Virus record (IMG/VR): IMGVR_UViG_3300045988_022004 | DNA from: a virus | DNA length: 60,777 bases | Reading direction: 5' to 3' (one strand) | Shown here: one piece after another, positions 7,042 to 39,965 of the stretch | How the letters are laid out: each line of letters begins with the position of its first letter | Numbering within the stretch: position 1 is the first letter of the stretch | Notes under the pieces: generated by a model | Seen by the model: the letters and a program-made list of their open reading frames with translations, nothing else | Database searches by the model: none | Told to the model about the DNA's origin: nothing | Translations under genes and position numbers: made by a program

Positions 7042-7497
7042 CTAATCTAAATCAGCGTATTTTTCGGCGAACTTGTTCTCACGAATTGTAACATACATGG
7101 AATCTACATATGCTGTAATTCCGGAACGACCAGACATCTCCCATTCGTAAGGGCGAATTGAAATATCACAATTTACAATGTCAACGACATCGAGCTGCGC
7201 TACTGTGTTCTCATCCAGTAAGTTTTTATGATTACCAACAATAAGCCATACCTGAGTGTATCTGTTCATGTTAAGCTTTACAGGGAGCGTCCATTCCTGT
7301 TCTGAGGAATCCGCCCCTTCAGGAAGAGGACGTTCTTTGACGTTCCATCCCTCATTGCTTAATTCATCAGCCATTACCGGATCATCGATTACAACACTGA
7401 ATCCTCTTTTACCAGGATTGTATTTGTCTCTTTCTCCTGAGAAGTTCTTCCAAATAATAAGTGCACCTTCAATATTAATGTTGTTTACGTTTGCCAT
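7042..7497 (-). CDS. Candidate OB-fold ssDNA-binding protein, T7 gp2.5-like.
   Basis: 151 aa. ISIRPYEWEMSGRSGITAYV resembles the gp2.5 core. It has an acidic C-terminal tail (KFAEKYADLD) and lies between the helicase and polymerase genes. Confidence 0.45.
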   Translation of the reverse strand: MANVNNINIEGALIIWKNFSGERDKYNPGKRGFSVVIDDPVMADELSNEGWNVKERPLPEGADSSEQEWTLPVKLNMNRYTQVWLIVGNHKNLLDENTVAQLDVVDIVNCDISIRPYEWEMSGRSGITAYVDSMYVTIRENKFAEKYADLD

Positions 7498-7512
7498 GAT
7501 AGACCTTCCTTT

Positions 7513-10500
7513 CTATGCTGCCATTTCGGCATGTTCATCAATTGCAAATTTTTCAAAGTCAGTAAATTCAGAAATTGTCTCAATTGCTTCATCAGCAAGT
7601 TTGTCATAGTAAGACATATCGATCTCATCCTGAATATTGTTTATTAATACATCTTCTGATTCTAACCAACGATATCCCTTTGTTCCAGACGGAGCGAAGT
7701 ATTTGTCGTCTTTCATGCGGAACAACTGAGCACCGCCGCATCCTTCTTTAACAGGACAGAATCTTCCTACTTTACCAACGAACTTGTAGTCATGTTCTCC
7801 TTCAGCGAGATTCTCATTGAAGTCAAGATCCAGTTCACCACCATTGCTAACTGCAATTGTCTGGCACAAGTCATCAAATTCAATCTTCTCGTGAGTGAAG
7901 AGTTTCTTCTTTACATATGGCACCGCAAACTGAGTTCCAGTTGCTGTCCATCCTTCACCTTTCTCATATGCAATGTAGACCGCATTGTTAACTAAGCAGA
8001 TCTTCTCGTACTCAGCTTCGATCTCAAATGTATATCCATATTTCTTTCCAAAGTCATAAATAAACTGCTCAACTTCTGGAGTTGGATTATCAATCTTGAT
8101 AGAATCTGTTTTGATGTGAACTACGTGAGCCCCAAGTTTCTCAACTTCACCCTTAAGTGTTGCCATAAAGAGTGATCCACGCTTAGCAACAATATTATCA
8201 ATGTTTCTTTCATCCTTAAATAGATTAGTGAAATGAGCTGAAGTTAATCCATATACAGAATTGATAACAATTTTCAACGCCTTGGCTAACTTATCCAGTT
8301 CGTCATTAGCAACATTCACAAATCTAGCAAATGCTCCGCCAAACAGAGTTTTCAGTGCTTCGATGTCACGATGCTTAATTGCAATACGAGCATCAACCAA
8401 ATCCTTGAATCTAGCAGTATACTTCTTACCAAACAGATTGAGTGCAATTACTGAATGGGGATGCATTGATGCTATATCAAATGTTTTGACATTTCTGTAC
8501 ATTCCAGGATCAGCAATTACTAATCCGCCTTCGTTGAGCTTGATTCCTCGATAAGTCGATACACCGTGATCATATACATAGCCTTCAAACTTATTCATTT
8601 CGTTGTATGTTTCATTGCCGTCCATGTCGACAGAGATACCTGTAGAAAGATCGGTGTATATGAATTCTCGCTGTGGGTTCTTGTCTTTACCAAAGATCAG
8701 TTTACCAGACAACATGTTGTTCGTGTCGTTTGGACATCCACCAGCAATCTCAGCCAGTACACATCTTGCTTCAAAGTCTGCAATGTTAGCTTCAAATGTT
8801 GCTTCTGTTGCAATGACATCGTTGTCGCAGTATTCTGCAACCTTAGGCCACAGCTCTTCTGGTACAGGCTGATCCCAAGGTAAAGCCCATTCCTGATGGT
8901 GAATACCTAATTCGATTTCCCACTTCTTTAAGCTCTGTTTCTTAGCACAGAAGTCATAGACATCTGTATAGCTCAGGTTGTATGCTGATCCAAAGAAAGC
9001 ATTCGGACTCTTAGCAATAATATCTTGTGAGAGCTGGAACAAAGCTTCCAACGAATATCCCATCATTCTTGCATATAGGATGTGGTTATCATATCTTCGA
9101 CAGTTAAATCCAACAAGTTTCATTTTGAGGAACTCTTCAACCTCAGCTGATGATGGATTGATCATTCTTGTACAAGGCCCAGGTTCACCTCTATATTTCC
9201 AGTTAACCAATAACAGGTTTGGGAACACCTCAATATCAAAGAATACAATTCTGTCATCCTTTGGAGAGTCTGCTCCAGCAACATCATCCGAACAATAATG
9301 AATCTTTCCAACCTGCTCGAGGCAGTAGTCTGCATGATTTGTACTTGACGCTGCGAATGCTACAATATCATTACGCATGTCTGTTACGTCGTAGTGCTCG
9401 CCTGACTCGTATGCATCATCCAGAATCTTTTTGATAAAGTCAACGCTTGGTTTAGTTCCAGGATGACTTTCTTTCCGAAGATTCTTTTTGATCAATGCTC
9501 GAATCATCTTCTCGCTAGCAACTACTTTAAAGTCTACCATATTTTCACTCCTTTTCTTTAAAGGTAATCCCGAAGATATAGTAGCAATAGCTAAGGTGTT
9601 GCAAGCTGTTACAATTCTTCGCAATGCTCCTTTGCCACTATAAACTTTGATTTCGATATTGTCGCTATATACATTATCAAGTTGCTTCGGGTCACCACTG
9701 TAATAGTAATGCAGATGAACTCCTGCACCACTCTTTGAGAACTCAGCATATGTAGGCGGCCATTTTGACGCCGCCTTTAAGTTCAGTTCTTTAGACTTAT
9801 TGCCATCGGCATCTTTTAGATCAAAGTCAATCACAATCAAGTTCTCTGGAACTCTAACATAATGTAACTTGCTAGTGTCCAGATCTTTAAGAGTGGTTCC
9901 AACTCGATCCCACGCTTTTGATGGCGCATCGCCTTTCGCATATTGAGCCGGACAGTTCTTGCACGCTTCGTCTAGAATCGATTTAGTGCTATCCATTTTA
10001 AGCCATGACTCTTTGGCCTTATCTGGTGTAAGCTCTTTTTCAGTGAACTTATCTTTCTTGAAGCCTTTGTAATAGCTTCTAACTCTTGTTCCATCATCCA
10101 ATGTTGCTCTGTCAAGGAATTCTTCAAAGTAATCCTTTAAGTCTTCCCTAAACTTATACATAGGCATCTTATTCGGAAGTCCAGTATTGTCACAGTACTC
10201 TTTGTAGAGACTATATGCTGCTTTTAATGTTGTACCATTATCCTGTTCAAAGAACGGATAGCAGCTCTCGACAAAGTTGAAGAATACATCGGTTTTAAAC
10301 ATCATGTCTAATGGCTTATATCCATCATAATAATGCTTACCATATTTCTTATATACTTTCATACAATGATTAGCTATAGCTCCAAGTTCATACTGAACCT
10401 GCCCCATGCATTCCTGATAAGTATCTGGATCAAGTAACTCGCCAGTTGGCTTGACATCTATAAGACGTCTAATAATACCCGACTTTGCATCAGTGATTTT

Positions 10501-11343
10501 GACTGGTCGGTTCGTTCCCATAAACAGCATACTGTTAACTCGCATTGGATACTCTGCTTTATATTTTTCAGAAATGCCAATTTCCTCATGAGCAATTATA
10601 GAATTAAGAAGGGTGTTATCTTCAATTCTACTTAAGTCACCGTCGTGCTGTATCATTACCAGCGGATTATCTTTGAACACTGCTGTTGCAAACGATTTTG
10701 ACGAGTTGGCTAAGTCTTTAGCATTAAATGTTCCGCAATATCCATCAAACAGCATTTGGATAATATTAAGGATTGTTGACTTACCGGTTCCAGCTTCGCC
10801 ATAGAATACTAAGAACTTCTGAATCTTTTTAGAGTCGCCAGATATTACTGATCCAATGGCCCACTCGATCTTTCGCCGTTCTTCCGAGTCGTACAGTGTT
10901 GAGATGATTTTCTCATAGCCTGGTATCTTACCTTCTTTGATGTCATATGGTAAGGTCTTGGAACGATAGTCCTCTTTGCTTGTCTTCTGGTTTAGGAATG
11001 TAATATCAGAATCTAACTGTATTGGAGACGATGGGCTAAGCTGGCAATACTTCTTGTACTTTTCCCAGCGTCCATTATCAAAGTCCCTTAAATAGTCCTT
11101 TTCAATTTTGCTGGTTGTAGTTTTGCAAACCTTTTCAAACGTTTCATCAACTAAACGATCCACATAATCAATAACATCATATTCATCAGTAGACCATCTG
11201 TTCTTCTTCTCATCCCAGATAGCATAGAACGCCTTACCTTTGCATAACAGATTATCGACTTCTTTAGAAACAGCGAACGTCGGGTGAATGACCGTTGCAT
11301 CCCTAGACTTGACATATGAACTCTTAATTGTTACAAAATTCAT
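7513..11343 (-). CDS. Fusion replicase: SF3 (D5/P4-type) helicase, then AEP primase-polymerase, then family B DNA polymerase.
   Basis: 1276 aa from ATG 11343; the track start at 11388 is a TTG.
- SF3 helicase: Walker A GEAGTGKS (nt 10777-10800), MIQHDGD, MGTN.
- AEP primase: VIDFDLKD and SGAGVHLHYYY (about nt 9700-9840).
- PolB: FFDIEVFPN, NCRRYDNHIL, YCDNDV, DIASMHPHS, KIVINSVYG, HIKTDSI. Confidence 0.85.
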   Translation of the reverse strand: MNFVTIKSSYVKSRDATVIHPTFAVSKEVDNLLCKGKAFYAIWDEKKNRWSTDEYDVIDYVDRLVDETFEKVCKTTTSKIEKDYLRDFDNGRWEKYKKYCQLSPSSPIQLDSDITFLNQKTSKEDYRSKTLPYDIKEGKIPGYEKIISTLYDSEERRKIEWAIGSVISGDSKKIQKFLVFYGEAGTGKSTILNIIQMLFDGYCGTFNAKDLANSSKSFATAVFKDNPLVMIQHDGDLSRIEDNTLLNSIIAHEEIGISEKYKAEYPMRVNSMLFMGTNRPVKITDAKSGIIRRLIDVKPTGELLDPDTYQECMGQVQYELGAIANHCMKVYKKYGKHYYDGYKPLDMMFKTDVFFNFVESCYPFFEQDNGTTLKAAYSLYKEYCDNTGLPNKMPMYKFREDLKDYFEEFLDRATLDDGTRVRSYYKGFKKDKFTEKELTPDKAKESWLKMDSTKSILDEACKNCPAQYAKGDAPSKAWDRVGTTLKDLDTSKLHYVRVPENLIVIDFDLKDADGNKSKELNLKAASKWPPTYAEFSKSGAGVHLHYYYSGDPKQLDNVYSDNIEIKVYSGKGALRRIVTACNTLAIATISSGLPLKKRSENMVDFKVVASEKMIRALIKKNLRKESHPGTKPSVDFIKKILDDAYESGEHYDVTDMRNDIVAFAASSTNHADYCLEQVGKIHYCSDDVAGADSPKDDRIVFFDIEVFPNLLLVNWKYRGEPGPCTRMINPSSAEVEEFLKMKLVGFNCRRYDNHILYARMMGYSLEALFQLSQDIIAKSPNAFFGSAYNLSYTDVYDFCAKKQSLKKWEIELGIHHQEWALPWDQPVPEELWPKVAEYCDNDVIATEATFEANIADFEARCVLAEIAGGCPNDTNNMLSGKLIFGKDKNPQREFIYTDLSTGISVDMDGNETYNEMNKFEGYVYDHGVSTYRGIKLNEGGLVIADPGMYRNVKTFDIASMHPHSVIALNLFGKKYTARFKDLVDARIAIKHRDIEALKTLFGGAFARFVNVANDELDKLAKALKIVINSVYGLTSAHFTNLFKDERNIDNIVAKRGSLFMATLKGEVEKLGAHVVHIKTDSIKIDNPTPEVEQFIYDFGKKYGYTFEIEAEYEKICLVNNAVYIAYEKGEGWTATGTQFAVPYVKKKLFTHEKIEFDDLCQTIAVSNGGELDLDFNENLAEGEHDYKFVGKVGRFCPVKEGCGGAQLFRMKDDKYFAPSGTKGYRWLESEDVLINNIQDEIDMSYYDKLADEAIETISEFTDFEKFAIDEHAEMAA

Positions 11344-11522
11344 ACTTTTCCCTTTCCTGACCATTTGGGCACAAAAATGTGCTTTCAAAAACTTTTATAT
11401 ATTTTCATACTTTTCTAAAAAGTTTTTTAAACTATATAAAAAATGGGTTTTTGGCCAATAAGGGCTTAAAATACCCCTAAAAAGCCACTTTTTCACCAAT
11501 TTTTGAAATTCACTGGTCAAAT

Positions 11523-29961: not shown

Positions 29962-30016
29962 ATTATAAGATATGGAATTTTTGCGAGGTAAAAGAAGAGG
30001 CCCTGAATCAGGCCTC
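29962..30016 (-). promoter_or_regulatory. Terminator-promoter cassette P16.
   Basis: Hairpin GAGGCC/GGCCUC at 29997-30016, TCGCAA at 29981-29986, TATAAT at 29962-29967. Confidence 0.55.
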
Positions 30017-30277
30017 TACTCTTTGATCATCAATAATTTTGAAGTATTCAATTTTAATGTCCGGATAGCATTCTGTTATATACTTTCTTATTTTGAGATA
30101 TGTTCCATAGTGCATCTTGCAATTCAATACCCATTCTCCATTGATGAATAATACATCTGCCGATTGTATCTTACCTTCAGTGTATCCGCACCAATCAAGT
30201 ATTCCTGATATTCGTCCCAAGATATAGTCGTTAACATCATTCTCTTTGATTATAATTTGATATAACATTTTATCCAT
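30008..30277 (-). CDS. 89-aa hypothetical protein ending in VEA.
   Basis: Track ORF; ATG follows AAGGAGGATTTTAT. Confidence 0.6.
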   Translation of the reverse strand: MDKMLYQIIIKENDVNDYILGRISGILDWCGYTEGKIQSADVLFINGEWVLNCKMHYGTYLKIRKYITECYPDIKIEYFKIIDDQRVEA

Positions 30278-30313
30278 TATAAAATCCTCCTTAAATATAA
30301 TTATTTAGTTCTC

Positions 30314-30338
30314 ATTATACTCGGTGAAAATTTAGCGA
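30314..30338 (-). promoter_or_regulatory. Promoter-like cassette P8: TCGCTA-N13-TATAAT-GAGAAC. It is the first promoter after the late/lysis operon.
   Basis: Consensus geometry, 83 nt downstream of the holin stop. Confidence 0.5.
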
Positions 30339-30377
30339 AAAAGAAACACTCCATGAATATCCAGCGATAATGTAACG

Positions 30378-30408
30378 TCCCTAGACCCTCGCATAGAAAG
30401 TCTAGAGA
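30378..30408 (-). terminator. Hairpin with a TC(C/T)CTAGAC / GTCTAGRGA stem at the end of the late operon.
   Basis: Stem of 8 of 9 bp with a 13-nt loop, directly after the holin stop. The same stem sequence occurs at 33034-33065. Confidence 0.4.
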
Positions 30409-30420
30409 CATATATGCATA

Positions 30421-30645
30421 CTACTGCCTTTTTGCCGAAGCAGCTTTGCGTTTGTTATGCTGGCTGGTGCTAATACCGAGCAGAGCACCAAGAAAAGTAT
30501 CTACTGCAGTAATAGTTCCTACGACCTGGTCTCCATACGGAAGACCCCAGATGGTAGCAAGTGTAAAATACAGAGTACCAATCGCTGGTAAGGCAATCAA
30601 TGCAATCCATTTAAGAATATCATACTGTTTATTTGTTAACTTCAT
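30421..30645 (-). CDS. Holin, resembling the Dp-1/phi-LC3-type small two-TM holin family.
   Basis: MKLTNKQYDILKWIALIALPAIGTLYFTLATIWGLPYGDQVVGTITAVDTFLGALLGIS with a basic tail. The ATG at 30645 follows GGAAGGAGAAAG. It is the last gene of the late operon. Confidence 0.6.
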   Translation of the reverse strand: MKLTNKQYDILKWIALIALPAIGTLYFTLATIWGLPYGDQVVGTITAVDTFLGALLGISTSQHNKRKAASAKRQ

Positions 30646-30973
30646 TTTGACTTTCTCCTTCCGATATTGGTGGTACGGTAAATATTTTGAGTCGGTTGAC
30701 TCCCTCCATAACCCTCTTTGCTGAGCCATTTCCGCCTAGTGCTTTGTACGGTTCGTAAAGATAGTCGCTCAGATTCTCATATTCATCTTTGGTGATCCAT
30801 CCGCGTTCGATGTATGTCATTCCTAACGCTACAATGCGGTCATGGGCCAGTCCAATGAGCATCTGACTTTGTAACGATTTTTTGTCATCTTTTTTCTGGA
30901 GCCAAGCCCAGAATCCCGAGGATGCAATAACCGAGCACAACACAGTAATAATTATCGATACGATGCTTTCCAT
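30629..30973 (-). CDS. Protein with an N-terminal TM helix, in the lysis-cassette neighbourhood.
   Basis: Hydrophobic N-terminus (IVSIIITVLCSVIASSGFWAWL); adjacent to the holin. Confidence 0.55.
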   Translation of the reverse strand: MESIVSIIITVLCSVIASSGFWAWLQKKDDKKSLQSQMLIGLAHDRIVALGMTYIERGWITKDEYENLSDYLYEPYKALGGNGSAKRVMEGVNRLKIFTVPPISEGESQNEVNK

Positions 30974-30983
30974 AATTTCCTCC

Positions 30984-31367
30984 TTATGCGATTACTCTAT
31001 CAAGTTCATAAGGAATAAACATCCATGCGTCATTACCTAATACAGAATAAGCTATTGAAAATATCTTAGTTCCATAATCGGCTATAAAGTTGCAGACCCA
31101 TTCTTCAGCCCATATCCAATATTCTGGCTTTACAACCTTATGAATATCGTCTAGCAAACTGTAACTAACAAGAGCACAATGACCTAGCTCATGGATAAGA
31201 ACCTTCATAAGGAGTGCACCAGATAAGCTCCTCGACATGAATATAGTTGCAAGGTTTGAGTCTGTGGTGGCTAATGTCATTTTTCCAGTCCTATCCATAA
31301 GCATTTTGTCATTTGGGTTTACGAACTTTATCCTCCATAAATATCCATTCATTGAGAATCTGTCCAT
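30984..31367 (-). CDS. Small HExxH zinc metallopeptidase (ImmA/IrrE- or SprT-like minimal fold).
   Basis: The VLIHELGHCAL motif in a 127-aa protein. Confidence 0.5.
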   Translation of the reverse strand: MDRFSMNGYLWRIKFVNPNDKMLMDRTGKMTLATTDSNLATIFMSRSLSGALLMKVLIHELGHCALVSYSLLDDIHKVVKPEYWIWAEEWVCNFIADYGTKIFSIAYSVLGNDAWMFIPYELDRVIA

Positions 31368-31381
31368 AATCGCAGTTCTCT

Positions 31382-32014
31382 TTAGATACTCATGCTGTCT
31401 ACTAATGTAGAAAGTTCGGTTTTCATTCTGCGTTTCAATTCAGGGCTGGCTTCACTCCAAATGTCACGCATAGAGATAATGGCCTTCTCGACATGTTCTT
31501 CTCCATGCTGTTCCATTCTCTCTTTATCTTCTGATGATCCAGTTTTTGTATAATGTTTTCTTGCATCAGACCAAGAATCATATGCAGCCCCATAAGTGCT
31601 GACTGGTTTATTCATCATTTTTGGATCATTTTGATCAATGTAACCGTAACGAAGTTTCATCTGATCTGCAAACTCTGTTGGATCTCCAGTGAGATACTGC
31701 TGCATAATGTAGTCTTCACCTTCTAAATATGGCATATATCCATATCTGGTTCCATGCCCAGTTGAAGCATATCTACCACTAGAAGCATAACGATTTGGGT
31801 TGTAACCGTAAGATCCATCGCCCATAGCCTCTACAATCGACTTATAATATTTCGACTGCATGCAGTAGTTCTCAGCTTCATAAATATCTTTGATCATATC
31901 GACAACTTCGCCCATTTCATGAGCATCTACGCACTCAATTCCATGAGAAAGCTGTTCTTTGACCGAATCTACAAGAGTTGCCTTAATAGAACAGAGATCT
32001 TTCATCTTTTCCAT
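31382..32014 (-). CDS. Hypothetical Tyr/Gly-rich protein.
   Basis: Track ORF with the central stretch GSYGYNPNRYASSGRYASTGHGTRYGYMPY. Confidence 0.6.
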   Translation of the reverse strand: MEKMKDLCSIKATLVDSVKEQLSHGIECVDAHEMGEVVDMIKDIYEAENYCMQSKYYKSIVEAMGDGSYGYNPNRYASSGRYASTGHGTRYGYMPYLEGEDYIMQQYLTGDPTEFADQMKLRYGYIDQNDPKMMNKPVSTYGAAYDSWSDARKHYTKTGSSEDKERMEQHGEEHVEKAIISMRDIWSEASPELKRRMKTELSTLVDSMSI

Positions 32015-32029
32015 TTTGACGACACCTCC

Positions 32030-32434
32030 TTAGGCAAGCCTACGAACAATAAAAGCGCTGTTAGCAGCGACAGTTACGTCCGCAGTACCATTATTAGTTA
32101 CGGTTATACGATCGTAGTCCCCGCAGCAATTCTTGATTAAAGTTGAAGTAGCTACGTTATTAGAAGCGTTAGCGGCTCCAGGAGTAGCAACCATAGTTGT
32201 CTCTGCCAGGGTTACGCCACCTAATTGAAAAGCAAGCTGCACTGGAGTGCCTGCAACGGCACCCGAGATGTTACCAGCAAAAGAAGCTTCATAAATACCA
32301 TTAGCTCTCATTTTGACAGATCCTGTGTTTTCCCTATGGCACTCAGCACAGCCTGTTTTGAGAAGAACTTTGTCAAAGGTAATGGACTGACCCGCAGGTA
32401 TTACCTGGGCAGTAGTATTTGATAATTCAATCAT
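32030..32434 (-). CDS. Stand-alone beta-rich domain resembling the BclA C-terminal / C1q-TNF-like trimeric head.
   Basis: 134 aa, rich in A/T/G/N/V. The pattern is IPAGQSITFD...NGIYEASFAGN...LAFQLGGVTL...ITVTNNG...AFIVRRLA. The assignment is by pattern only. Confidence 0.3.
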   Translation of the reverse strand: MIELSNTTAQVIPAGQSITFDKVLLKTGCAECHRENTGSVKMRANGIYEASFAGNISGAVAGTPVQLAFQLGGVTLAETTMVATPGAANASNNVATSTLIKNCCGDYDRITVTNNGTADVTVAANSAFIVRRLA

Positions 32435-32453
32435 TTTATAATACCTCCATACA

Positions 32454-32481
32454 AGGGAGAGCCAATTTCTAGACCCTCCCT
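32454..32481 (-). other. Intergenic hairpin: AGGGAG / CUCCCU stem with a 16-nt loop containing GGUCUAGA.
   Basis: Read directly from the sequence, between 32499 and 32434. Confidence 0.4.
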
Positions 32482-32498
32482 AATCATTTTGACGTTAA

Positions 32499-32978
32499 TT
32501 AGCAGCAACCGTTATTAGTTGATCCGCAGTAGCATCCAAACCCGTAATTAGCATATGGATTTGGTACTGTAAATGCCGGAACAGCAGCTGGACGTAACTG
32601 ATTAACGAGATACTGGTTCTGAGCACACTGAGATGCTGTAAGCTCCAGTTTGTTAATAGCAGCCTGCTGGCTAGCGATTGTCTGATCTTTTGCATCCATC
32701 TGCATTTTGACCATTTCATCATGCAGAGCGCGATAGTTGGCATTATCATTGTCAATAATGTCTCTTGTCTGATTTTGAATAGCGTTAGTGATAGCGCATG
32801 TATTTGTAGCCATATCATACTGAATCTGAGCCTGACCCTGACGGTTCTGGCAGCAGCAATCAGCTAACTGTGTCTGGATAGCATTTGTTGACTGTAAATT
32901 TGCGATATTGGAAGCATTAGCACTGTCACTAATAGCATTCTGAAGAGCGTTAGTAGACTGAAGCAGGCTAGTGTTCAT
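32499..32978 (-). CDS. Q/N/A-rich coiled protein with an internal CCC and a C-terminal Cys cluster (GFGCYCGSTNNGCC).
   Basis: 159 aa from ATG 32978. It has three NA(L/I)QN-type repeats. The track's TTG start at 33104 runs through the leader hairpin. Confidence 0.55.
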   Translation of the reverse strand: MNTSLLQSTNALQNAISDSANASNIANLQSTNAIQTQLADCCCQNRQGQAQIQYDMATNTCAITNAIQNQTRDIIDNDNANYRALHDEMVKMQMDAKDQTIASQQAAINKLELTASQCAQNQYLVNQLRPAAVPAFTVPNPYANYGFGCYCGSTNNGCC

Positions 32979-32992
32979 AGCATAGAATCCAT
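32975..32992 (-). promoter_or_regulatory. 5-codon upstream ORF (MDSML) whose TGA overlaps the ATG of 32499..32978.
   Basis: AAAGGAG-N10-ATGGATTCTATGCTATGA. The ATGA overlap suggests translational coupling. Confidence 0.35.
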
Positions 32993-33033
32993 AGCAAAAC
33001 AGCTCCTTTCTTATTTTGATTGAAATGTTCTTA

Positions 33034-33065
33034 TCCCTAGACACAAACGAGTAAAAGTCTAGGGA
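33034..33065 (-). other. Perfect 9-bp hairpin TCCCTAGAC-N14-GTCTAGGGA in the leader of 32499..32978.
   Basis: Read directly from the sequence. Confidence 0.6.
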
Positions 33066-33144
33066 TGTTATTAAATTTTCTTTTAACGTCGCTTGGACGA
33101 TCAAAAATTACTGCAATGGAATCACCTCCCTAAACCATTTTGAT

Positions 33145-33483
33145 TTATGTCAAAGACTCGCTGGTAGCCTCTGATTCGGATGTAACAATTGGATCGTTCT
33201 TGTAGGCTCTGATGGTGACATCATTAGATAACCCATCATGGATCTCAATAACATTGTCCAGTTTGAACCCGTCGAATGTAGTGACATTTTCATTGTCGTC
33301 TGTGATCTCCATATGAGAGATATTGTCGGCATTGCGGGCCGTAGAAGCGATTCTGTCAAACACTGCTGGGGATTCATATGTTGAAGTAATGTTCAGATAA
33401 GTTCTACCTGATTGATTCTGAGCATACTCTCTTGTAAATTTGCGAATATCAACTGTCGTTCCGTTTCCGAATTTAAGTTTCAT
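33145..33483 (-). CDS. Hypothetical protein.
   Basis: Track ORF; its start overlaps the radical-SAM gene's stop by 11 nt. Confidence 0.6.
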   Translation of the reverse strand: MKLKFGNGTTVDIRKFTREYAQNQSGRTYLNITSTYESPAVFDRIASTARNADNISHMEITDDNENVTTFDGFKLDNVIEIHDGLSNDVTIRAYKNDPIVTSESEATSESLT

Positions 33484-34810
33484 TTTGATCCTCCTTACTT
33501 AATTCTTTAAGCATATTAAGTTCTTCCTCTCCAATAATAGGAATGGCCCATTCATCTGGGCAGTATATTTTGAATCTCTGTTTCCAATGTTTCTTACGAT
33601 ACCACTTATTCCAGAAGTATGCATTTGCAAGAGATCGGGTCTTGTGCATATCGCAAATATAAGTACAACGAGAATCTGGAGTTCCATTTTCTTGGTAGTT
33701 GTACGCAGAGCACCAACTGCAACCCTCGGCTATAGGGCAATAGAAGCATTCGTCACTAGACTCTGTTCTTCTGTTGATCTTATTCAGACATTCAACGCAT
33801 TGCTTGTCGCATGTTCTCTGTGCAATCCCGAAATTTACGTGGCCAATTCTAAGCGGTTCTCGAGATGTTCCTAGACTGCTCTCCATATATCTTATACATG
33901 GATAAAGCCATCCGTCTGGGTCCATCGCCAGCATGAAGCCAGTTCCTCCACACCAGTTTTCGACATCCGTTTCTTCCTTTGGTTTGAAGAAGTCATTCTC
34001 GAATAATGCCATGAAATGGTCGTCGGCTAAGTCATTTTCAAGCCAATAATCGGCTAACATTTTGAGCTGCTCATAATAGATTTTTGCATGCTCCAATGTC
34101 CATCCCTTTTCATAAACGACGTTCGCATTGATATCTTTGTATCCAAGTTCTACCATATGTTTAATCGCCGAGAATAGATGCTGCACATTACCTGGTGCTA
34201 TGGTGATCTTAGAGCCCATATAGTATCCTCTTGATATCCAATCACGAGCTCCAGCTACTGCCACATCATAAGACCCAGTACCATCTGGAAAGACTCTACA
34301 AGCATCATGCAGAGCCTTATTTCCATCGATGGTAATTGAGAAAGAGAGATTATGCCGCCATTTGTTCAGGAACTTCTGAACCTTAGGCTCAAAATATAAT
34401 ACACCATTTGAGCAAATCGAAATACAAAATTTTGTTGCCCATGGGTGCATCAACTCGATAGCCTTATCATAGAAATACGTGCAAATCTGATCAATAAGAT
34501 CCACGCATAAGAAAGGCTCTCCGCCAATAAACTCAATGATAATGCCAGGTGATGTAGAGGCGTCGATGTAGTTACCGAGGCGTTCATCTCCAGTAAGAAG
34601 CATATCAATGAGTTTCTTTGCATCTTCGAATTTCATTTTTCTCTTACCTTTGTTTATCTGATAGCAGTAAGTACAGCATAAATTGCACTCGTCTGTTACT
34701 TGAAAGGTCACGGTACGAGATAAAGTTCTTCTGTCAGATGCATTATTTGTAATAATTGTCTCAGGATACAACCTTCCGATCATATCCTGAAACTGTTCGA
34801 ACTTCTTCAT
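33473..34810 (-). CDS. Radical SAM enzyme with a C-terminal SPASM-type auxiliary cluster domain (peptide-modifying / anSME-like class).
   Basis: CNLCCTYC (CxxxCxxC, nt 34664-34687), FIGGEPFL, WCGGTGFMLAMDPDGWLYPC, and CFYCPIAEGCSWC...C. Confidence 0.8.
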   Translation of the reverse strand: MKKFEQFQDMIGRLYPETIITNNASDRRTLSRTVTFQVTDECNLCCTYCYQINKGKRKMKFEDAKKLIDMLLTGDERLGNYIDASTSPGIIIEFIGGEPFLCVDLIDQICTYFYDKAIELMHPWATKFCISICSNGVLYFEPKVQKFLNKWRHNLSFSITIDGNKALHDACRVFPDGTGSYDVAVAGARDWISRGYYMGSKITIAPGNVQHLFSAIKHMVELGYKDINANVVYEKGWTLEHAKIYYEQLKMLADYWLENDLADDHFMALFENDFFKPKEETDVENWCGGTGFMLAMDPDGWLYPCIRYMESSLGTSREPLRIGHVNFGIAQRTCDKQCVECLNKINRRTESSDECFYCPIAEGCSWCSAYNYQENGTPDSRCTYICDMHKTRSLANAYFWNKWYRKKHWKQRFKIYCPDEWAIPIIGEEELNMLKELSKEDQNET

Positions 34811-34814
34811 AGGC

Positions 34815-35144
34815 TTAGCCCTCTAATACGGTAATGTGTACGAGGTGCTCTGAAAAGTCTGTTACTGCCCATCTGAATTTAACATCTTTTCCTTCATGCT
34901 CCAGAACACGAGGCTGTAAAGACTTTTCTAACTCAGCTTTAGCAATGTCGTAGGAACACTCAGCCTCTTCAAGCAGTTTGTGATAATGCTTAAATGGTAC
35001 TGAGTCCAGCACTGAAGCATCCGTATCATCTTTCGCCGACTCAAGCATATGAGCTACAACGTCTTTTCTAGTCATAACCTCGTATGCAAGTCTCTGTAAA
35101 TAGTCAGCTGTTTCCTTGTTAAGTTCTAATGTAAAGTTTTTCAT
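34815..35144 (-). CDS. Hypothetical acidic helical protein; possible partner or chaperone of the radical-SAM enzyme.
   Basis: Track ORF between the Cys-rich gene and the radical-SAM gene. Confidence 0.55.
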   Translation of the reverse strand: MKNFTLELNKETADYLQRLAYEVMTRKDVVAHMLESAKDDTDASVLDSVPFKHYHKLLEEAECSYDIAKAELEKSLQPRVLEHEGKDVKFRWAVTDFSEHLVHITVLEG

Positions 35145-35217
35145 ATTGGTTAACTCCTTTTCTTTTAATTCATTTTATATTTCTGTTATTTCGAATAGCA
35201 CTTCGATATAGGATCTA

Positions 35218-36285
35218 CTATCCTGAGACTACAGCTCCAAATGCTTGAGCTTGACAGGTACCAGTGCACGTTGCTGAACATGTGGTAGCGCATGCGTTTT
35301 TACACTGACCGCTACACCCATTACTACACCCATCACAATTTCCAGTACATGAACCGTAACATCCAGAACCACATCCTGAACATCCACCACAGCCTCCAGA
35401 GCAGCCAGCACAACCTTGGCATCCAGTTGTACATGACGATTCGCAGCTGGCCGAACACCCACTACACCCACTACAGGATAAACTACACGAGCCAGAGCAT
35501 GCGCCATCACATGAGGAACAAGTTGATCCGCAACCGCTACAACCGCTACAACCGCTACATGACGAACATGATGAGCATGAGCTAGCACACCCCGTGCAAC
35601 TATAGCATGTTGCGCATGACGAACCTTTACCACTTGCTGAACATGAACTAGAACAAGATCCTCCACATCCAGCGCACCCAGAACAACTCTGGCATGATCC
35701 ACTGCACCCATTGCATCCACTGCACCCATTGCTACATCCGTCACAGCTACCAGTACATCCACTACATCCAGTTGTACATGTGCCAGAGCATGAGGAACAT
35801 TCGCTACACCCACCACCGCAATTACCGCTGCATCCGCCGCATCCGCTTGATCCACTGCCACCAGATCCTCCAGATCCAGTACATCCACCAGAGCAGCTAC
35901 TACAGCCGCTACATGTATTACCGCACGTCCCTACACATAGTCCAGAGCATGCTCCACGACATGAAGAGGTAGCCCCATCGATTGGCTCTTTAGACAATGT
36001 GTCAGTGTAAGATAGTAACTCGTTGTTGAACGATGACGGAATCTTAGATCCTGTCTTAAGATCGGCAGTATTCAAATTGCCATGGTCCTTAATATTCAAC
36101 AAAGGCTCGATTACTTTTTTGCCTTGGTCAGCGGTGACTTTGGTTCCAGATGTAGGAGTTGTGGAGAAGTCGTACGATGCAGATGCGAACCCAGTCATAG
36201 AACCATTGTATGCTCTACGCTGCATTTCCGTTTTTACCTTAGCTTTTAGAGAGTTTACCTCTGCCGCGGTAAGAAAATTAGGCAT
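35218..36285 (-). CDS. Hyper-cysteine repeat protein: a 108-aa N-terminal domain followed by about 235 aa of (C-X2-3)n made of C/S/G/T.
   Basis: The ATG at 36285 follows AAGGAGGTTGAAGATA. There are 63 Cys after residue 108, for example CSGCSGCSGCGSTCSSCDGACSGSC. Confidence 0.7.
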   Translation of the reverse strand: MPNFLTAAEVNSLKAKVKTEMQRRAYNGSMTGFASASYDFSTTPTSGTKVTADQGKKVIEPLLNIKDHGNLNTADLKTGSKIPSSFNNELLSYTDTLSKEPIDGATSSCRGACSGLCVGTCGNTCSGCSSCSGGCTGSGGSGGSGSSGCGGCSGNCGGGCSECSSCSGTCTTGCSGCTGSCDGCSNGCSGCNGCSGSCQSCSGCAGCGGSCSSSCSASGKGSSCATCYSCTGCASSCSSCSSCSGCSGCSGCGSTCSSCDGACSGSCSLSCSGCSGCSASCESSCTTGCQGCAGCSGGCGGCSGCGSGCYGSCTGNCDGCSNGCSGQCKNACATTCSATCTGTCQAQAFGAVVSG

Positions 36286-36416
36286 TATCTTCAACCTCCT
36301 TTTCAAAAGATTTATCTGATTTTTCCTCCAGGGGATTTTTTACATTTCGTTTTTCGTTATCTTTTGTAAAACGATCATTTCCCGATAAATACATTATCCA
36401 TATCCCCCATTTTGAA

Positions 36417-38801
36417 TTATCCCCATATCGCTGCTAATGGTACCCAGGCAGAACCATTGTAAAACCTAGCTACACCTGACGTATCAATCCATAGAAGCTT
36501 TGTATTAGATGGGGCTGAAGCGCCGTAAGAAGTTCCACCAGACGATAGCTCGGTTACAGTTCCATCTTCAGCAACATGCTTCATAGCATTTCCATTACCA
36601 GAGTCAATCCATAAAGTGCTCCTTTTGGCGTTTGGCTTTGAATCTGATTTAACAACGTCAGAACCATATATATCTAAAGCTCTAGTTGGAGTCCATTTAC
36701 TTCCGGTCCAATATTGTATGAGACTTCCACTAGATGGGTCAATCCATAAATCTCCAACTTTAGGATTAGTAGGAGCGTTTACCCCATAGCTAACGCCTCC
36801 AGACTCTGCTGATTTCTTGATTGACTCTAACAGATATTTACCATTAGGAGCATCTGCGTGGAATGACTGAACATTTCCTGGAGAGATTATATGAGTAACC
36901 GAATCGAATGATTTTAGATCGAAATTAGGAAACTTTGTATCTTCGGTGATCTTCATAGTAGAGGATTGGTATGGGGCGAATACTGTTGTGTCGGAATCGT
37001 CAAGAGTTACCATGATGTCCGAAATTGTAGCATTAACATTTGAAGCTGGGTTATTATGTTGAATCGCAATAATGACATGATGTTCGCTCCAATCATAAGC
37101 ATCATGTTTTAAAATATCAGAAAAGTTTTTAACATATACATTTGTATTTGTAAAAACTTGAATGTACGCTTCAACATTAGTTACACTTTTTTTAGCGCTT
37201 ATTTTTAGGTCATGTCCCGCTTTTAGCATTCTCAAAAGAAATGCATTACATTCATCCGTACTAATAATGAAAGCTAAAAATGATTTTTCAGTTGTTCCTT
37301 CGATTTTAATCATTCCTTCTTTTAAAGCTGTAAATGTGAGACCATTATTATTCGCAGTTTTCTGAGCATACGGATAAGAAAGAATATTCTTCCCGTATGT
37401 CTTAATATCATATCCAGAATATGGGACGAAATCGTCTATTGTAGCTTCTAGATCAGTTGTAACCATTGGCTTAAATATAAGATTTGTCACTGTTGTTCCC
37501 TTATTAATATATAACCGATAATTTAAATAAGGATAAGCATCATTTATAATTACCCCATTTCCAATATCAGATGCTACAGCTTTCAATTCTGAATTTAATT
37601 CGGAACTATTATAATAACAAACGTCAATTCGGTAAGTGTCTTGGCTTCCATTTATAGGGCAACCTAGCATCTTACATCCCCCAACAGTATTTTCAAATGG
37701 GACCGATTGCGAGCTATTACCTTGTAAATAAAACACATAGTTTTCACGTGCAGTGCCATCCAGTTTCAGCGTACCATCATTGATTTTAGTCATTTTTATC
37801 CCATAACCACTATGCGCTGCGAATGGTGGTTTTAATAAATTCCTCATGGCATTACCTAACATTAACGGAGCTTCGACAGTACCTGTTAGATCTGTTTTCG
37901 TTGACTCGATAAGAGACACTTTCTCTTTGCCTAGCTTTTCTGTTTCCAGAGTAAGTTTAGCACCAAGGTCGCCTTCGAGTTTGTTTTTCATATTCTCAAA
38001 CCACTTATCGAACTCGGCCTGAGATGATTTTTCCCACTGCTGGAATGTTGACCAGTTAGCATCGTAAGCGGCTTTAATCGTAGCAAACCACTGGTCATAG
38101 CCGTTCTTAATACTATCATACCATTCCTGATAATCCGATTTTGAAGTTGCTTCCCAATCAGCAATCTCTTTCTTAGCGGCAGCAAGCCAAGCCTGATAAT
38201 CCTGTTTCTCGCCATTCATCCAGGTATTGAAATTTGCGGTATTCTCCTCTACAAACTTATTCAAGATATCTTTCCACTGAGGTATAAGCTGTTCGATGCT
38301 AATTACCTCAAGAATACCTGTAACAAACGGGCAAGCGCTCGTCCCTACACAGTTCTCAATATCTGCCTGCCTAATGGACGTAACCTCTTTGCCAACCTTA
38401 ACGTAAGCCAACGGATACTGATGAACTTCCTTAGTATTTGTCAGTGCTGGCTTGGTAGGTGTAGAAGATGGCGTTCCTTTAATTAGTTTAATGCTGTTTG
38501 CTCTTACGGCCTCAACAGAGTTTATCTCCAAAACAATTGCGTCAATTCGGTCCATAAGAATCTCTGATGGTGGAATTGTCACTGGGTAAAGCGCATCGTT
38601 GTAACTCCAAGTATGATTGAACCATGCTCGGCCAGTTCCAACTGTTACGTTCATCTGGTTGCTTTGCTTAACGACCATACAGTCACCAATAGATGCAAAA
38701 ATTCCATCTCGAATTAAGCCATCAAATAATCTTGAAATGTCGGTAGCATCATATAATCTATCATGATCTACGGAATTAAAAAATCCAGATGCAAAACTCA
38801 T
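36417..38801 (-). CDS. Tail fibre / receptor-binding protein.
   Basis: 794 aa directly after Tal. The N-terminus FFNSVDHDRLYDATDISRLFDGLIRDGIF is typical of Firmicutes phage fibre proteins. The C-terminus has a threefold ...LWID...W.P repeat. Confidence 0.65.
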   Translation of the reverse strand: MSFASGFFNSVDHDRLYDATDISRLFDGLIRDGIFASIGDCMVVKQSNQMNVTVGTGRAWFNHTWSYNDALYPVTIPPSEILMDRIDAIVLEINSVEAVRANSIKLIKGTPSSTPTKPALTNTKEVHQYPLAYVKVGKEVTSIRQADIENCVGTSACPFVTGILEVISIEQLIPQWKDILNKFVEENTANFNTWMNGEKQDYQAWLAAAKKEIADWEATSKSDYQEWYDSIKNGYDQWFATIKAAYDANWSTFQQWEKSSQAEFDKWFENMKNKLEGDLGAKLTLETEKLGKEKVSLIESTKTDLTGTVEAPLMLGNAMRNLLKPPFAAHSGYGIKMTKINDGTLKLDGTARENYVFYLQGNSSQSVPFENTVGGCKMLGCPINGSQDTYRIDVCYYNSSELNSELKAVASDIGNGVIINDAYPYLNYRLYINKGTTVTNLIFKPMVTTDLEATIDDFVPYSGYDIKTYGKNILSYPYAQKTANNNGLTFTALKEGMIKIEGTTEKSFLAFIISTDECNAFLLRMLKAGHDLKISAKKSVTNVEAYIQVFTNTNVYVKNFSDILKHDAYDWSEHHVIIAIQHNNPASNVNATISDIMVTLDDSDTTVFAPYQSSTMKITEDTKFPNFDLKSFDSVTHIISPGNVQSFHADAPNGKYLLESIKKSAESGGVSYGVNAPTNPKVGDLWIDPSSGSLIQYWTGSKWTPTRALDIYGSDVVKSDSKPNAKRSTLWIDSGNGNAMKHVAEDGTVTELSSGGTSYGASAPSNTKLLWIDTSGVARFYNGSAWVPLAAIWG

Positions 38802-38825
38802 ATTTTTCCTCCTTTATCTTATTCT

Positions 38826-39965
38826 TTAAGAGCCGACTGGTATTCTGTTATCATCGGCGCTTACAAAGTCTGTAAAAGTAGGGTATGAAGTTTCCCCACT
38901 AGAATCTTGGGACATAATAAATTCCGACACGGTCGACGTCCCCTTAATACCATAGTCGTTTTCTATCTGTACTATATCCCCCATTTTGAAATCTCTTCCA
39001 TACACAAACATAGTATGAGGATCGACGTCCCCGTCCATAGATATTGTATGTGGCTTCTCAGCTAGAGCCTCTTTGCCCTTCTGAGCAACTACTTTTAATC
39101 GTTCGGCGTCGCTCATCTTATGGTCCTCATCCTCAGATGTTATAGATCCCGCGTCAACATATATCTCACATCTATGCATTCCGCTTAATTGTTTCTGGGA
39201 TTCCCCATCCCTAGTTACTTCTTTAGTAATCTTCAATGGATTCCCTGATAACGTCTGTGTATCTCCATCCTCCCCAACAGTTAATGCAACATTCGCGTAA
39301 TCTTCTTTACTGTCAAGATAAGATGTGTTATTTAAGTTTTCAAATGACGGACTGAATACAACATATGGAGTTAATTGCTGTGCATAAGATCTATCGATAC
39401 CTTTGTACAGCTCAAACTCGAATTGTTTATTTTCATTTAGTGTAATTTTAAACCCAATTTGTTTCTCGACACAAAGTGAGTTTATTGCCTCGTATAAGTT
39501 TTCATGTTGCTCATATTTAGCGTCAATTGTTAAAGCAGTTATTCTGCTGTCTGTACTCTTCTTGAATACAAAGTTAGAAATCTTTCTTTCTGATTTTGAC
39601 GGCGATATGATAGCGTCATTTATTAGCTTCTGTACGCCATCTTGGAAATTGCCACTCAGGGTAGTATTGTCCCAGATGATCCTACGCTTCAATAAGCTCT
39701 CAAGGGAATAACCTATTACTTTAATTGTAGGTCCTTCTGTGGCATTTGTTTCTAGAAGCATTCCCTGAATAATCATCATGTGAACTGAACTATCATTTTG
39801 AAGATAGTAATCGTTGACTAGATAAGGGAATACCCCATCCATATCCAAAGTGAGGTATAGTTCAAAGTCCCCATTTTCTTGATACCTATCAGTCCAAATG
39901 AAGGACTTGAACCTGTCAATGATGGCTACTTTTTCAAACCGTGAGTTTAATATTGTAGCTTCCAT
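38826..39965 (-). CDS. Tail-associated protein (Tal; prophage-tail endopeptidase N-terminal type).
   Basis: Follows Dit. The N-terminus ILNSRFEKVAIIDRFKSFIWTDRY is typical of siphophage Tal proteins. Confidence 0.65.
   Translation of the reverse strand: MEATILNSRFEKVAIIDRFKSFIWTDRYQENGDFELYLTLDMDGVFPYLVNDYYLQNDSSVHMMIIQGMLLETNATEGPTIKVIGYSLESLLKRRIIWDNTTLSGNFQDGVQKLINDAIISPSKSERKISNFVFKKSTDSRITALTIDAKYEQHENLYEAINSLCVEKQIGFKITLNENKQFEFELYKGIDRSYAQQLTPYVVFSPSFENLNNTSYLDSKEDYANVALTVGEDGDTQTLSGNPLKITKEVTRDGESQKQLSGMHRCEIYVDAGSITSEDEDHKMSDAERLKVVAQKGKEALAEKPHTISMDGDVDPHTMFVYGRDFKMGDIVQIENDYGIKGTSTVSEFIMSQDSSGETSYPTFTDFVSADDNRIPVGS

Follow-up and report, generated by a model that had tools for sequence, protein, structure and literature searches.

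A radical-SAM maturase gene module in the tail region of phages, and its presumed target, a cysteine-repeat protein with fibre-like features

We examined the gene for a radical S-adenosylmethionine (SAM) enzyme in IMG/VR virus record IMGVR_UViG_3300045988_022004, a stretch of 60,777 nucleotides (nt) that is referred to at its full length as the window. The enzyme belongs to the NCBIfam family TIGR04115, its cluster motifs are intact, and it is encoded together with a Cys-repeat protein of 355 amino acids (aa) and two small proteins in a four-gene module that occurs in the tail region of many phages. We consider it probable, at roughly 65%, that this enzyme cross-links the Cys-repeat protein through many thioethers and thereby turns it into a fibre-like rod. 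The module and its parts in the window are as follows.

33473..34810, minus strand: radical-SAM/SPASM maturase of the TIGR04115 family, 445 aa (open reading frame plus NCBIfam hidden Markov model, HMM)
34664..34687, minus strand: radical-SAM cluster motif CX3CX2C of the enzyme, CNLCCTYC, residues 42-49 (motif scan)
33653..33952, minus strand: SPASM auxiliary-cluster region of the enzyme, residues 287-386, with 8 invariant Cys (15-sequence alignment)
35218..36285, minus strand: Cys-repeat protein, 355 aa, the presumed substrate, two genes upstream of the enzyme
35962..36285, minus strand: N-terminal domain (N-domain) of the Cys-repeat protein, residues 1-108
35254..35961, minus strand: CXX/CXXX repeat region of the Cys-repeat protein, residues 109-344
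35145..35217, minus strand: 73-nt spacer, where close relatives encode a C-terminal tip of 125-180 aa that is deleted in the window
34815..35144, minus strand: 109-aa accessory protein (AlphaFold2 model: strand, two long antiparallel helices, two strands)
33145..33483, minus strand: 112-aa accessory protein of the ~100-aa type, variable in position (local HMM)

When scored against NCBIfam, the enzyme matched TIGR04115, whose full name is "radical SAM peptide maturase, CXXX-repeat target family", with 495.6 bits against a cutoff of 350 (E = 1.1e-148) over model positions 2-359 of 359. This match is far beyond chance, and NCBI and JGI apply the same name to close homologues wherever these are named. 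The second- and third-best models were those of PapB (NF047865; 167.4 bits, cutoff 340) and QhpD (106 bits, cutoff 453); both failed their cutoffs, as did the SCIFF maturase (TIGR03974; 95.5 bits, cutoff 425) and anSME (TIGR03942; 54.5 bits, cutoff 349). All of the next-best models were maturases of proteins or of peptides that are synthesized on the ribosome and modified after translation (RiPPs), and the NCBIfam names or descriptions of PapB, QhpD and the SCIFF maturase denote thioether or protein cross-link enzymes. The only Pfam match was a sub-threshold one to Radical_SAM, the PHROGs counterpart is phrog_1802, and 3392 homologous proteins were found at E ≤ 1e-20. To judge from its sequence, the enzyme carries the defining features of TIGR04115, i.e. 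the HMM score, the cluster cysteines and an adjacent Cys-repeat target, and differs from the family in none of them. An earlier note on this DNA, made from the sequence alone, had missed the curated family name; its prediction of an enzyme acting on a peptide or protein is borne out by these scores, which also place the protein outside the non-peptide radical-SAM families, membership of which the note had taken as contrary evidence. An anSME or QueE-type identity, against which the note had argued, is ruled out by the HMM scores, the radical-SAM plus SPASM architecture being what the enzyme has in common with anSME. In agreement with the same note, no sulfatase was found in the window, and the motif [CS]xPxR occurred 0 times in the 19,608 residues of minus-strand window open reading frames (ORFs) of ≥ 90 aa.

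All of the motifs that the earlier note had listed for the 445-aa ORF were recovered. In addition to CNLCCTYC, the motif GGEPFL begins at residue 96 and WCGGTG at residue 286, followed by G300-x4-C305, and from residue 355 onward the protein reads CFYCPIAEGCSWC, with the pattern CxxCx5CxxC and then C386. Conservation of the cysteines was read from 15 aligned homologues with 65-82% identity, in which the radical-SAM residues C42, C46 and C49 and the SPASM-region residues C287, C305, C341, C355, C358, C364, C367 and C386 are all invariant. The three Fe-S cluster motifs of the enzyme are intact and invariant, and the loss of auxiliary-cluster cysteines in orthologues, which the earlier note had regarded as grounds for doubt, was not seen in this alignment. 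Two further cysteines outside the cluster motifs, C133 and C171, are invariant too. Some homologues contain inteins, recognized by Hint and LAGLIDADG Pfam domains; in homologue P0077 the intein, of ~325 aa, is inserted directly ahead of the first SPASM cysteine (C287 of the window enzyme), between NW and CGGTG. The other intein-bearing homologues are listed here.

P0043, P0055, P0065, P0071, P0080, P0084, P0090, P0092, P0097 and P0101

The Cys-repeat protein starts at the ATG at 36285, behind an AAGGAGG ribosome-binding site, and not at the TTG at 36306. Its repeat region holds 63 Cys in 236 residues, spaced by 4 (32 times) or 3 (28 times), with mainly Ser, Gly and Thr between them; the protein ends with the tail QAQAFGAVVSG. 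The repeat opens with the conserved motif SSCRGAC[ST]GLC, in which C109, C113, G115 and C117 are invariant. In a set of 12 diverse substrates, neighbouring cysteines are 3 or 4 residues apart in 97% of cases, and the positions after a repeat cysteine are mostly Ser, Thr or Gly. The N-domain was found in 269 cluster representatives at E ≤ 1e-3; it is N-terminal in all but two of the sequences that were read, the Cys repeat comes next in every case, and profile searches of Pfam, NCBIfam, PHROGs and PDB gave no match to it. Substrate lengths across the loci range from 160 to 800 aa, and in some substrates (loci L011, L012 and L018) a short leader of 5-25 residues stands ahead of the repeat. Within the module, nt divergence is highest in the repeat: its median identity to the window is 74%, while the enzyme gene reaches 94% and the 109-aa gene 96.5%. 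A word-indexed homologue search returned 15 matches for the 109-aa protein and 6 for the N-domain. Many of the latter were fragments from contigs of < 2 kb, and the exact Cys-repeat sequence of the window was absent from a collection of 15 billion proteins. This suggests that assemblies and gene callers often break in the Cys repeat and that the family may be under-counted.

The association of these genes was examined in 17 genome loci and 80 viral loci, collected with the enzyme alignment; a scan of the genome contigs with the single enzyme sequence gave no match, whereas the alignment-based scan succeeded. With a Cys-rich ORF defined in our script by ≥ 16 Cys per 80 residues, such an ORF lies beside the enzyme gene on the same strand in essentially every locus with enough flank, and the pairing holds in nearly all of ~100 loci. 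The sole apparent locus without one, L008, has a masked run of N just upstream and is not a clean counterexample. Module membership, scored with local HMMs in 29 diverse loci, placed the ~109-aa protein next to the enzyme in 28 of the 29 and the ~100-aa protein in 22. The conserved set is therefore made up of the Cys-repeat protein, the ~109-aa protein, the enzyme and, in most loci, the ~100-aa protein. Gene order varies within this set: the Cys gene is upstream of the enzyme in most loci but is found downstream of it in L014 and L015, L021 has the 109-aa type downstream, and the ~100-aa type follows the enzyme in some loci and separates the Cys gene from the 109-aa gene in others. In two loci, L002 and L071, a single enzyme is preceded by a pair of Cys-repeat paralogues, and in P0154 the Cys-repeat protein is fused with the 109-aa-type protein in a single polypeptide. 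Those genome records that carry a name come from Lachnospiraceae and other Clostridia, and the module is also present in prophages of sequenced isolates; prophage relatives lie in Eubacterium pyruvativorans i6 (NZ_FNBF01000017.1) and Anaerolentibacter hominis CSJ-1. Its named hosts are given below.

Agathobacter, Blautia, Lachnoclostridium, Anaerosporobacter, Eubacterium pyruvativorans i6 and Anaerolentibacter hominis

A second, divergent radical-SAM gene was observed on the contig of L071 (13420-15849; E = 3e-18 to the family HMM). It adjoins a different repeat protein of 364 aa, rich in Cys, Asp and Asn and containing CDCDSNKCYDCC, with which it appears to form another enzyme-substrate pair, of a different type.

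Both partner proteins carry the NCBI label hypothetical protein, and neither matched TIGR04114 or any other NCBIfam model even at E ≤ 10. The exact 109-aa sequence occurs on 600 contigs. Its AlphaFold2 (AF2) model has a predicted local distance difference test score (pLDDT) of 91.9; a Foldseek search of this model against PDB returned generic helical hairpins only (best E = 0.2), and among the predicted viral structures of BFVD only uncharacterised gut-phage proteins were alike. We considered the 109-aa protein as a detached PqqD-like RiPP-recognition element (RRE) and rejected this, given that the model is a helical hairpin with a small sheet rather than a winged helix and had no PDB match. 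The nearest solved structure to the enzyme itself is CteB (5WGG; E = 1.2e-18), which we take to be the SCIFF thioether synthase, and with which it shares the radical-SAM core and the SPASM region, both spanned by the alignment. However, the alignment begins at CteB residue 88 and only ~30 residues precede the core in the window enzyme, which, on this alignment, has no counterpart of the N-terminal domain of CteB. The enzyme, lacking an N-terminal RRE of its own, probably relies on the 109-aa protein, together with the ~100-aa protein where that is present.

Both the position and the domain layout of the Cys-repeat protein are fibre-like, and on this evidence we infer that it may be located in the virion. 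The module comes after tail, baseplate or tail-fibre genes in diverse phages: among 30 upstream neighbours from diverse loci, the annotated PHROGs were tail protein, baseplate wedge, tail fibre, tail assembly, virion structural and 'head protein', and the Pfam domains near the module include BppU_N, Phage_fiber_rpt and Mtd_N. In relatives of the window protein the layout is an N-domain, a Cys stalk and a non-Cys C-terminal domain, as in P0142 (522 aa) and P0195 (715 aa). The N-domain of P0142 is 99% identical to that of the window, and past ...QAFGAVVS the protein runs into a 180-aa non-Cys domain; P0195 gains 430 residues. An insert in P0262 gave a weak match to CBM_4_9 (22.7 bits, below the cutoff of 25.9), and in L098 the repeat is fused to two ALK-type glycine-rich domains (E = 4.5e-102). 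Among ~40 IMG/VR phages whose enzymes are 98-100% identical at the protein level, there are at least four sequence types of tip domain, which stand behind a conserved linker, (G)(V)VEDPTVDLIANG. The Cys-repeat proteins of L014 (2492-3145) and L015 (9353-9910) have no N-domain and begin with MLKMNLQFF[GA], a start that matches the Prp cleavage motif of ribosomal protein L27, MLxx(D/N)LQ(F/L)F'A; a sequence related to this motif is found at the N-termini of the capsid and scaffold proteins of phage 80alpha (PMC9405229). By eye, no signal-peptide-like N-terminus was seen, and no exporter, leader protease or immunity gene accompanies the module in the loci examined. No part of the Cys-repeat protein matched a known tail-fibre family in the PHROG, library and PDB searches.

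The junction between stalk and tip was compared in the IMG/VR relatives L023-L063 (locus positions ~7060-7640; equivalent in the window, 35145-35230). In these near-identical phages a poly-G run of G4-G9 at the junction sets the reading frame, in the following forms.

TCG(n)TTGAGGACC: in frame with G5, stop with G4 or G6
TCAG(n)TAGTTGAGG: in frame with G7, stop with G8
TCG(n)TGAGGACC: in frame with G9, stop with G7

In addition, point stops are present at the junction in L025, L026 and L060, and the tip is deleted in further relatives, the window included, which lacks a poly-G tract because of this deletion. Homopolymer slippage and hypermutable tracts have been described in phage genes (PMC12633550), and the related literature on poly-G tracts and phage receptor-binding proteins includes PMC10877375. 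The likeness to the poly-G tracts of Campylobacter phages and to phage contingency loci lies in a homopolymer run that decides the reading frame in the relatives. The length differences may instead be homopolymer sequencing error.

We propose the following course for the cross-linking. The 109-aa helical-hairpin protein, with the ~100-aa protein where present, would keep the substrate in place or offer it to the enzyme; docking and entry would likely occur at the N-domain and at the invariant C-x3-C-x-G-L-C that opens the repeat. The enzyme would cleave SAM reductively, take a hydrogen atom from a residue between the cysteines (mostly Ser, Thr or Gly) and then join the Cys sulfur to that carbon; dozens of repeats of this reaction would give a ladder of small thioether rings. 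Most likely, the product would be a rod, non-reducible and protease-resistant, that serves a fibre-like phage protein as its shaft. Its place of formation would be the host cytoplasm, an anaerobic setting that permits the oxygen-sensitive enzyme to work and in which stable disulfides are assumed to be unable to form. The fuller proposal, that gut Clostridia phages build a tail-fibre-like appendage with a thioether-stapled CXX(X) shaft and, in some lineages, a swappable tip that is switched by poly-G, is more tentative, and we hold it to be possible rather than probable.

The thioether chemistry is suggested by analogy with the nearest characterised relatives, since PapB, QhpD and the SCIFF maturase all form Cys thioethers. 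SCIFF precursors are peptides of ~45 residues with six Cys. QhpD puts intramolecular Cys thioether cross-links into a protein subunit, not an exported peptide, and is the best precedent for the stapling of a structural protein; however, it targets a small subunit of an enzyme, in which a few cross-links run to Asp or Glu and which is neither a long low-complexity repeat nor a phage protein. PapB is also a radical-SAM/SPASM enzyme and places several short-range Cys thioether rings on a tandem motif (CSANDA units; PMC12373016). In contrast with the window enzyme, in which only ~30 residues lie ahead of the core, PapB docks the leader peptide through its own RRE, and it links Cys to Asp or Glu acceptors (PMC12373016), residues that are rare in the Cys repeat; moreover its substrate is a short peptide and not a 355-aa protein.

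In the window, the gene order runs from terminase, portal, head protease, a 2938-aa tape measure, Dit and a minor tail protein to a 794-aa virion protein, the module, variable small genes, holin and replication genes, in a siphovirus-like genome with all of its genes on the minus strand. The late-operon setting described in the earlier note is thus upheld by the same-strand order from terminase through the tail genes and the module to holin. The note's 11-nt overlap of the enzyme's stop with the neighbouring gene 33145..33483 was likewise found (33473-33483), and the enzyme starts 4 nt past the stop of the upstream 109-aa gene. Co-translation with the neighbours, which had been suggested from the overlap, gains weak support from this tight spacing. 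The neighbours on either side of the module are as follows.

36417..38801, minus strand: 794-aa virion structural, tail-fibre-like protein, outside the module (phrog_1220 and phrog_5339)
31382-33104, minus strand: block of mosaic cargo that separates the module from the lysis genes
32499-33104, minus strand: 201-aa protein of the block, ending with GFGCYCGSTNNGCC, with clustered C-terminal Cys (phrog_16490)
32030-32434, minus strand: 134-aa protein of the block, which weakly matches the C-terminal portion of a PHROG annotated 'collagen like minor tail'

The third protein of the cargo block is 210 aa long. Roughly 25 of 40 close relatives have the block, which is often displaced by a further insertion of ~1 kb. 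The 201-, 134- and 210-aa genes were rejected as members of the module, being mosaic cargo limited to close relatives: they are absent from the distant loci that carry the module, and L023, whose enzyme is 100% identical by tblastn, retains a short fragment of the 201-aa gene and neither of the other two. The earlier note had pointed to Cys-rich neighbours as candidate substrates, and this holds, specifically for the 355-aa Cys-repeat protein, the 201- and 134-aa proteins being variable cargo. That the enzyme acts instead on the 201-aa or 134-aa protein is barely credible to us. Both genes are encoded on the same strand no more than 1.5 kb downstream, and the cysteines of the 201-aa protein are clustered, but the two genes are confined to close relatives, some of which (e.g. 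L023) do without them, and they are absent from all of the distant loci in which the enzyme, the 109-aa gene and the Cys-repeat gene are retained.

Several points weigh against thioether cross-linking of the Cys-repeat protein into a rod. TIGR04115 is defined by bioinformatics alone and our literature search found no paper characterising any of its members, so that the chemistry is drawn from homology of 25-30% identity. In the 12 diverse substrates Asp accounts for only 2.0% and Glu for 1.3% of the residues in the repeat, and the acceptor must therefore differ from that of PapB; a different chemistry could also be signalled by C133 and C171, two invariant cysteines at which the aligned CteB has other residues. 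The 109-aa protein lacks an RRE fold, which makes its adaptor role a guess, and the AF2 model of the N-domain, built on an alignment of only 7 sequences, has a pLDDT of 51 and is unusable. The window's own copy of the Cys-repeat protein has no tip domain, and the slot between tail and lysis genes also hosts accessory phage cargo, such that position alone is no proof of a structural role. Those observations that concern the chemistry, i.e. the extra pair of cysteines, the scarcity of acidic acceptors and the lack of a characterised family member in the literature searched, would also suit another reaction on the same substrate, such as conversion of Cys into formylglycine or dehydroalanine, epimerisation, methylation or the making of a metal or iron-sulfur scaffold. 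We regard this as quite improbable, given that the closest families, PapB, QhpD and the SCIFF maturase, are thioether or protein cross-link enzymes by name or description, that anSME scored only 54.5 bits against its cutoff of 349 and that [CS]xPxR is found neither in the repeat nor in the window ORFs of ≥ 90 aa.

The same enzyme and substrate might otherwise make a product that is released rather than built into the virion. In that case the N-domain would be the leader and the repeat the core of an outsized RiPP-type precursor, freed at lysis or by lysogens and serving as a toxin, adhesin, metal binder or anti-defence factor. The membership of the enzyme in the RiPP-maturase superfamily is consistent with such a product, as are the short leaders of 5-25 residues in L011, L012 and L018, the occurrence of the module in prophages of sequenced isolates and its site between tail and lysis genes, where accessory cargo is common and, in the window, variable cargo follows directly downstream. 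However, no exporter, leader peptidase or immunity gene was seen with the module in the loci examined, and the substrates are 160-800 aa long. Their fibre-like layout, with swappable tips and fusions to a weakly CBM-like insert and to ALK-type glycine-rich domains, and the constant place of the module after tail genes in unrelated phage lineages also argue for a fibre-like protein, and we therefore consider a released product unlikely.

The phage tail-module context of TIGR04115, the modular fibre-like substrates of 160-800 aa and the two partner proteins all appear to be undescribed in the literature searched, in which we also found no paper on radical-SAM modification of phage fibres. If the full fibre proposal is true, this would be the first RiPP-type radical chemistry that matures a virion structural protein, with thioethers as a non-reducible substitute for disulfides in a phage shaft. 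Viruses would then harden particle proteins with enzymes known for small antibiotic-like peptides; the RiPP and radical-SAM fields would gain a very large, naturally repetitive substrate with 63 candidate sites, along with an unassigned family for study, and phage biology would gain a novel type of fibre. A further gain would be a concrete account of how phages of strict anaerobes might stabilise extracellular structures against gut proteases and reducing conditions. Even a conservative reading assigns a substrate and two unannotated partners to an enzyme that has been named in databases and not studied, and the abundance of TIGR04115 (3392 homologues, with the 109-aa partner on 600 contigs) makes any function that it may have relevant to human-gut phage ecology.

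Some further observations were made on the window. Promoter-like and terminator-like sites around the module, in 30000-39000, were no more frequent than in shuffled sequence. On the minus strand at 2142-4841, an 899-aa protein matches phrog_4291, 'RNA-dependent RNA polymerase' (E = 0), and is probably a YonO-like single-subunit RNA polymerase. A protein of 1291 aa, encoded at 7513-11388, has matches to PHROGs of both DNA polymerase and primase. This phage appears to encode its own replication machinery.

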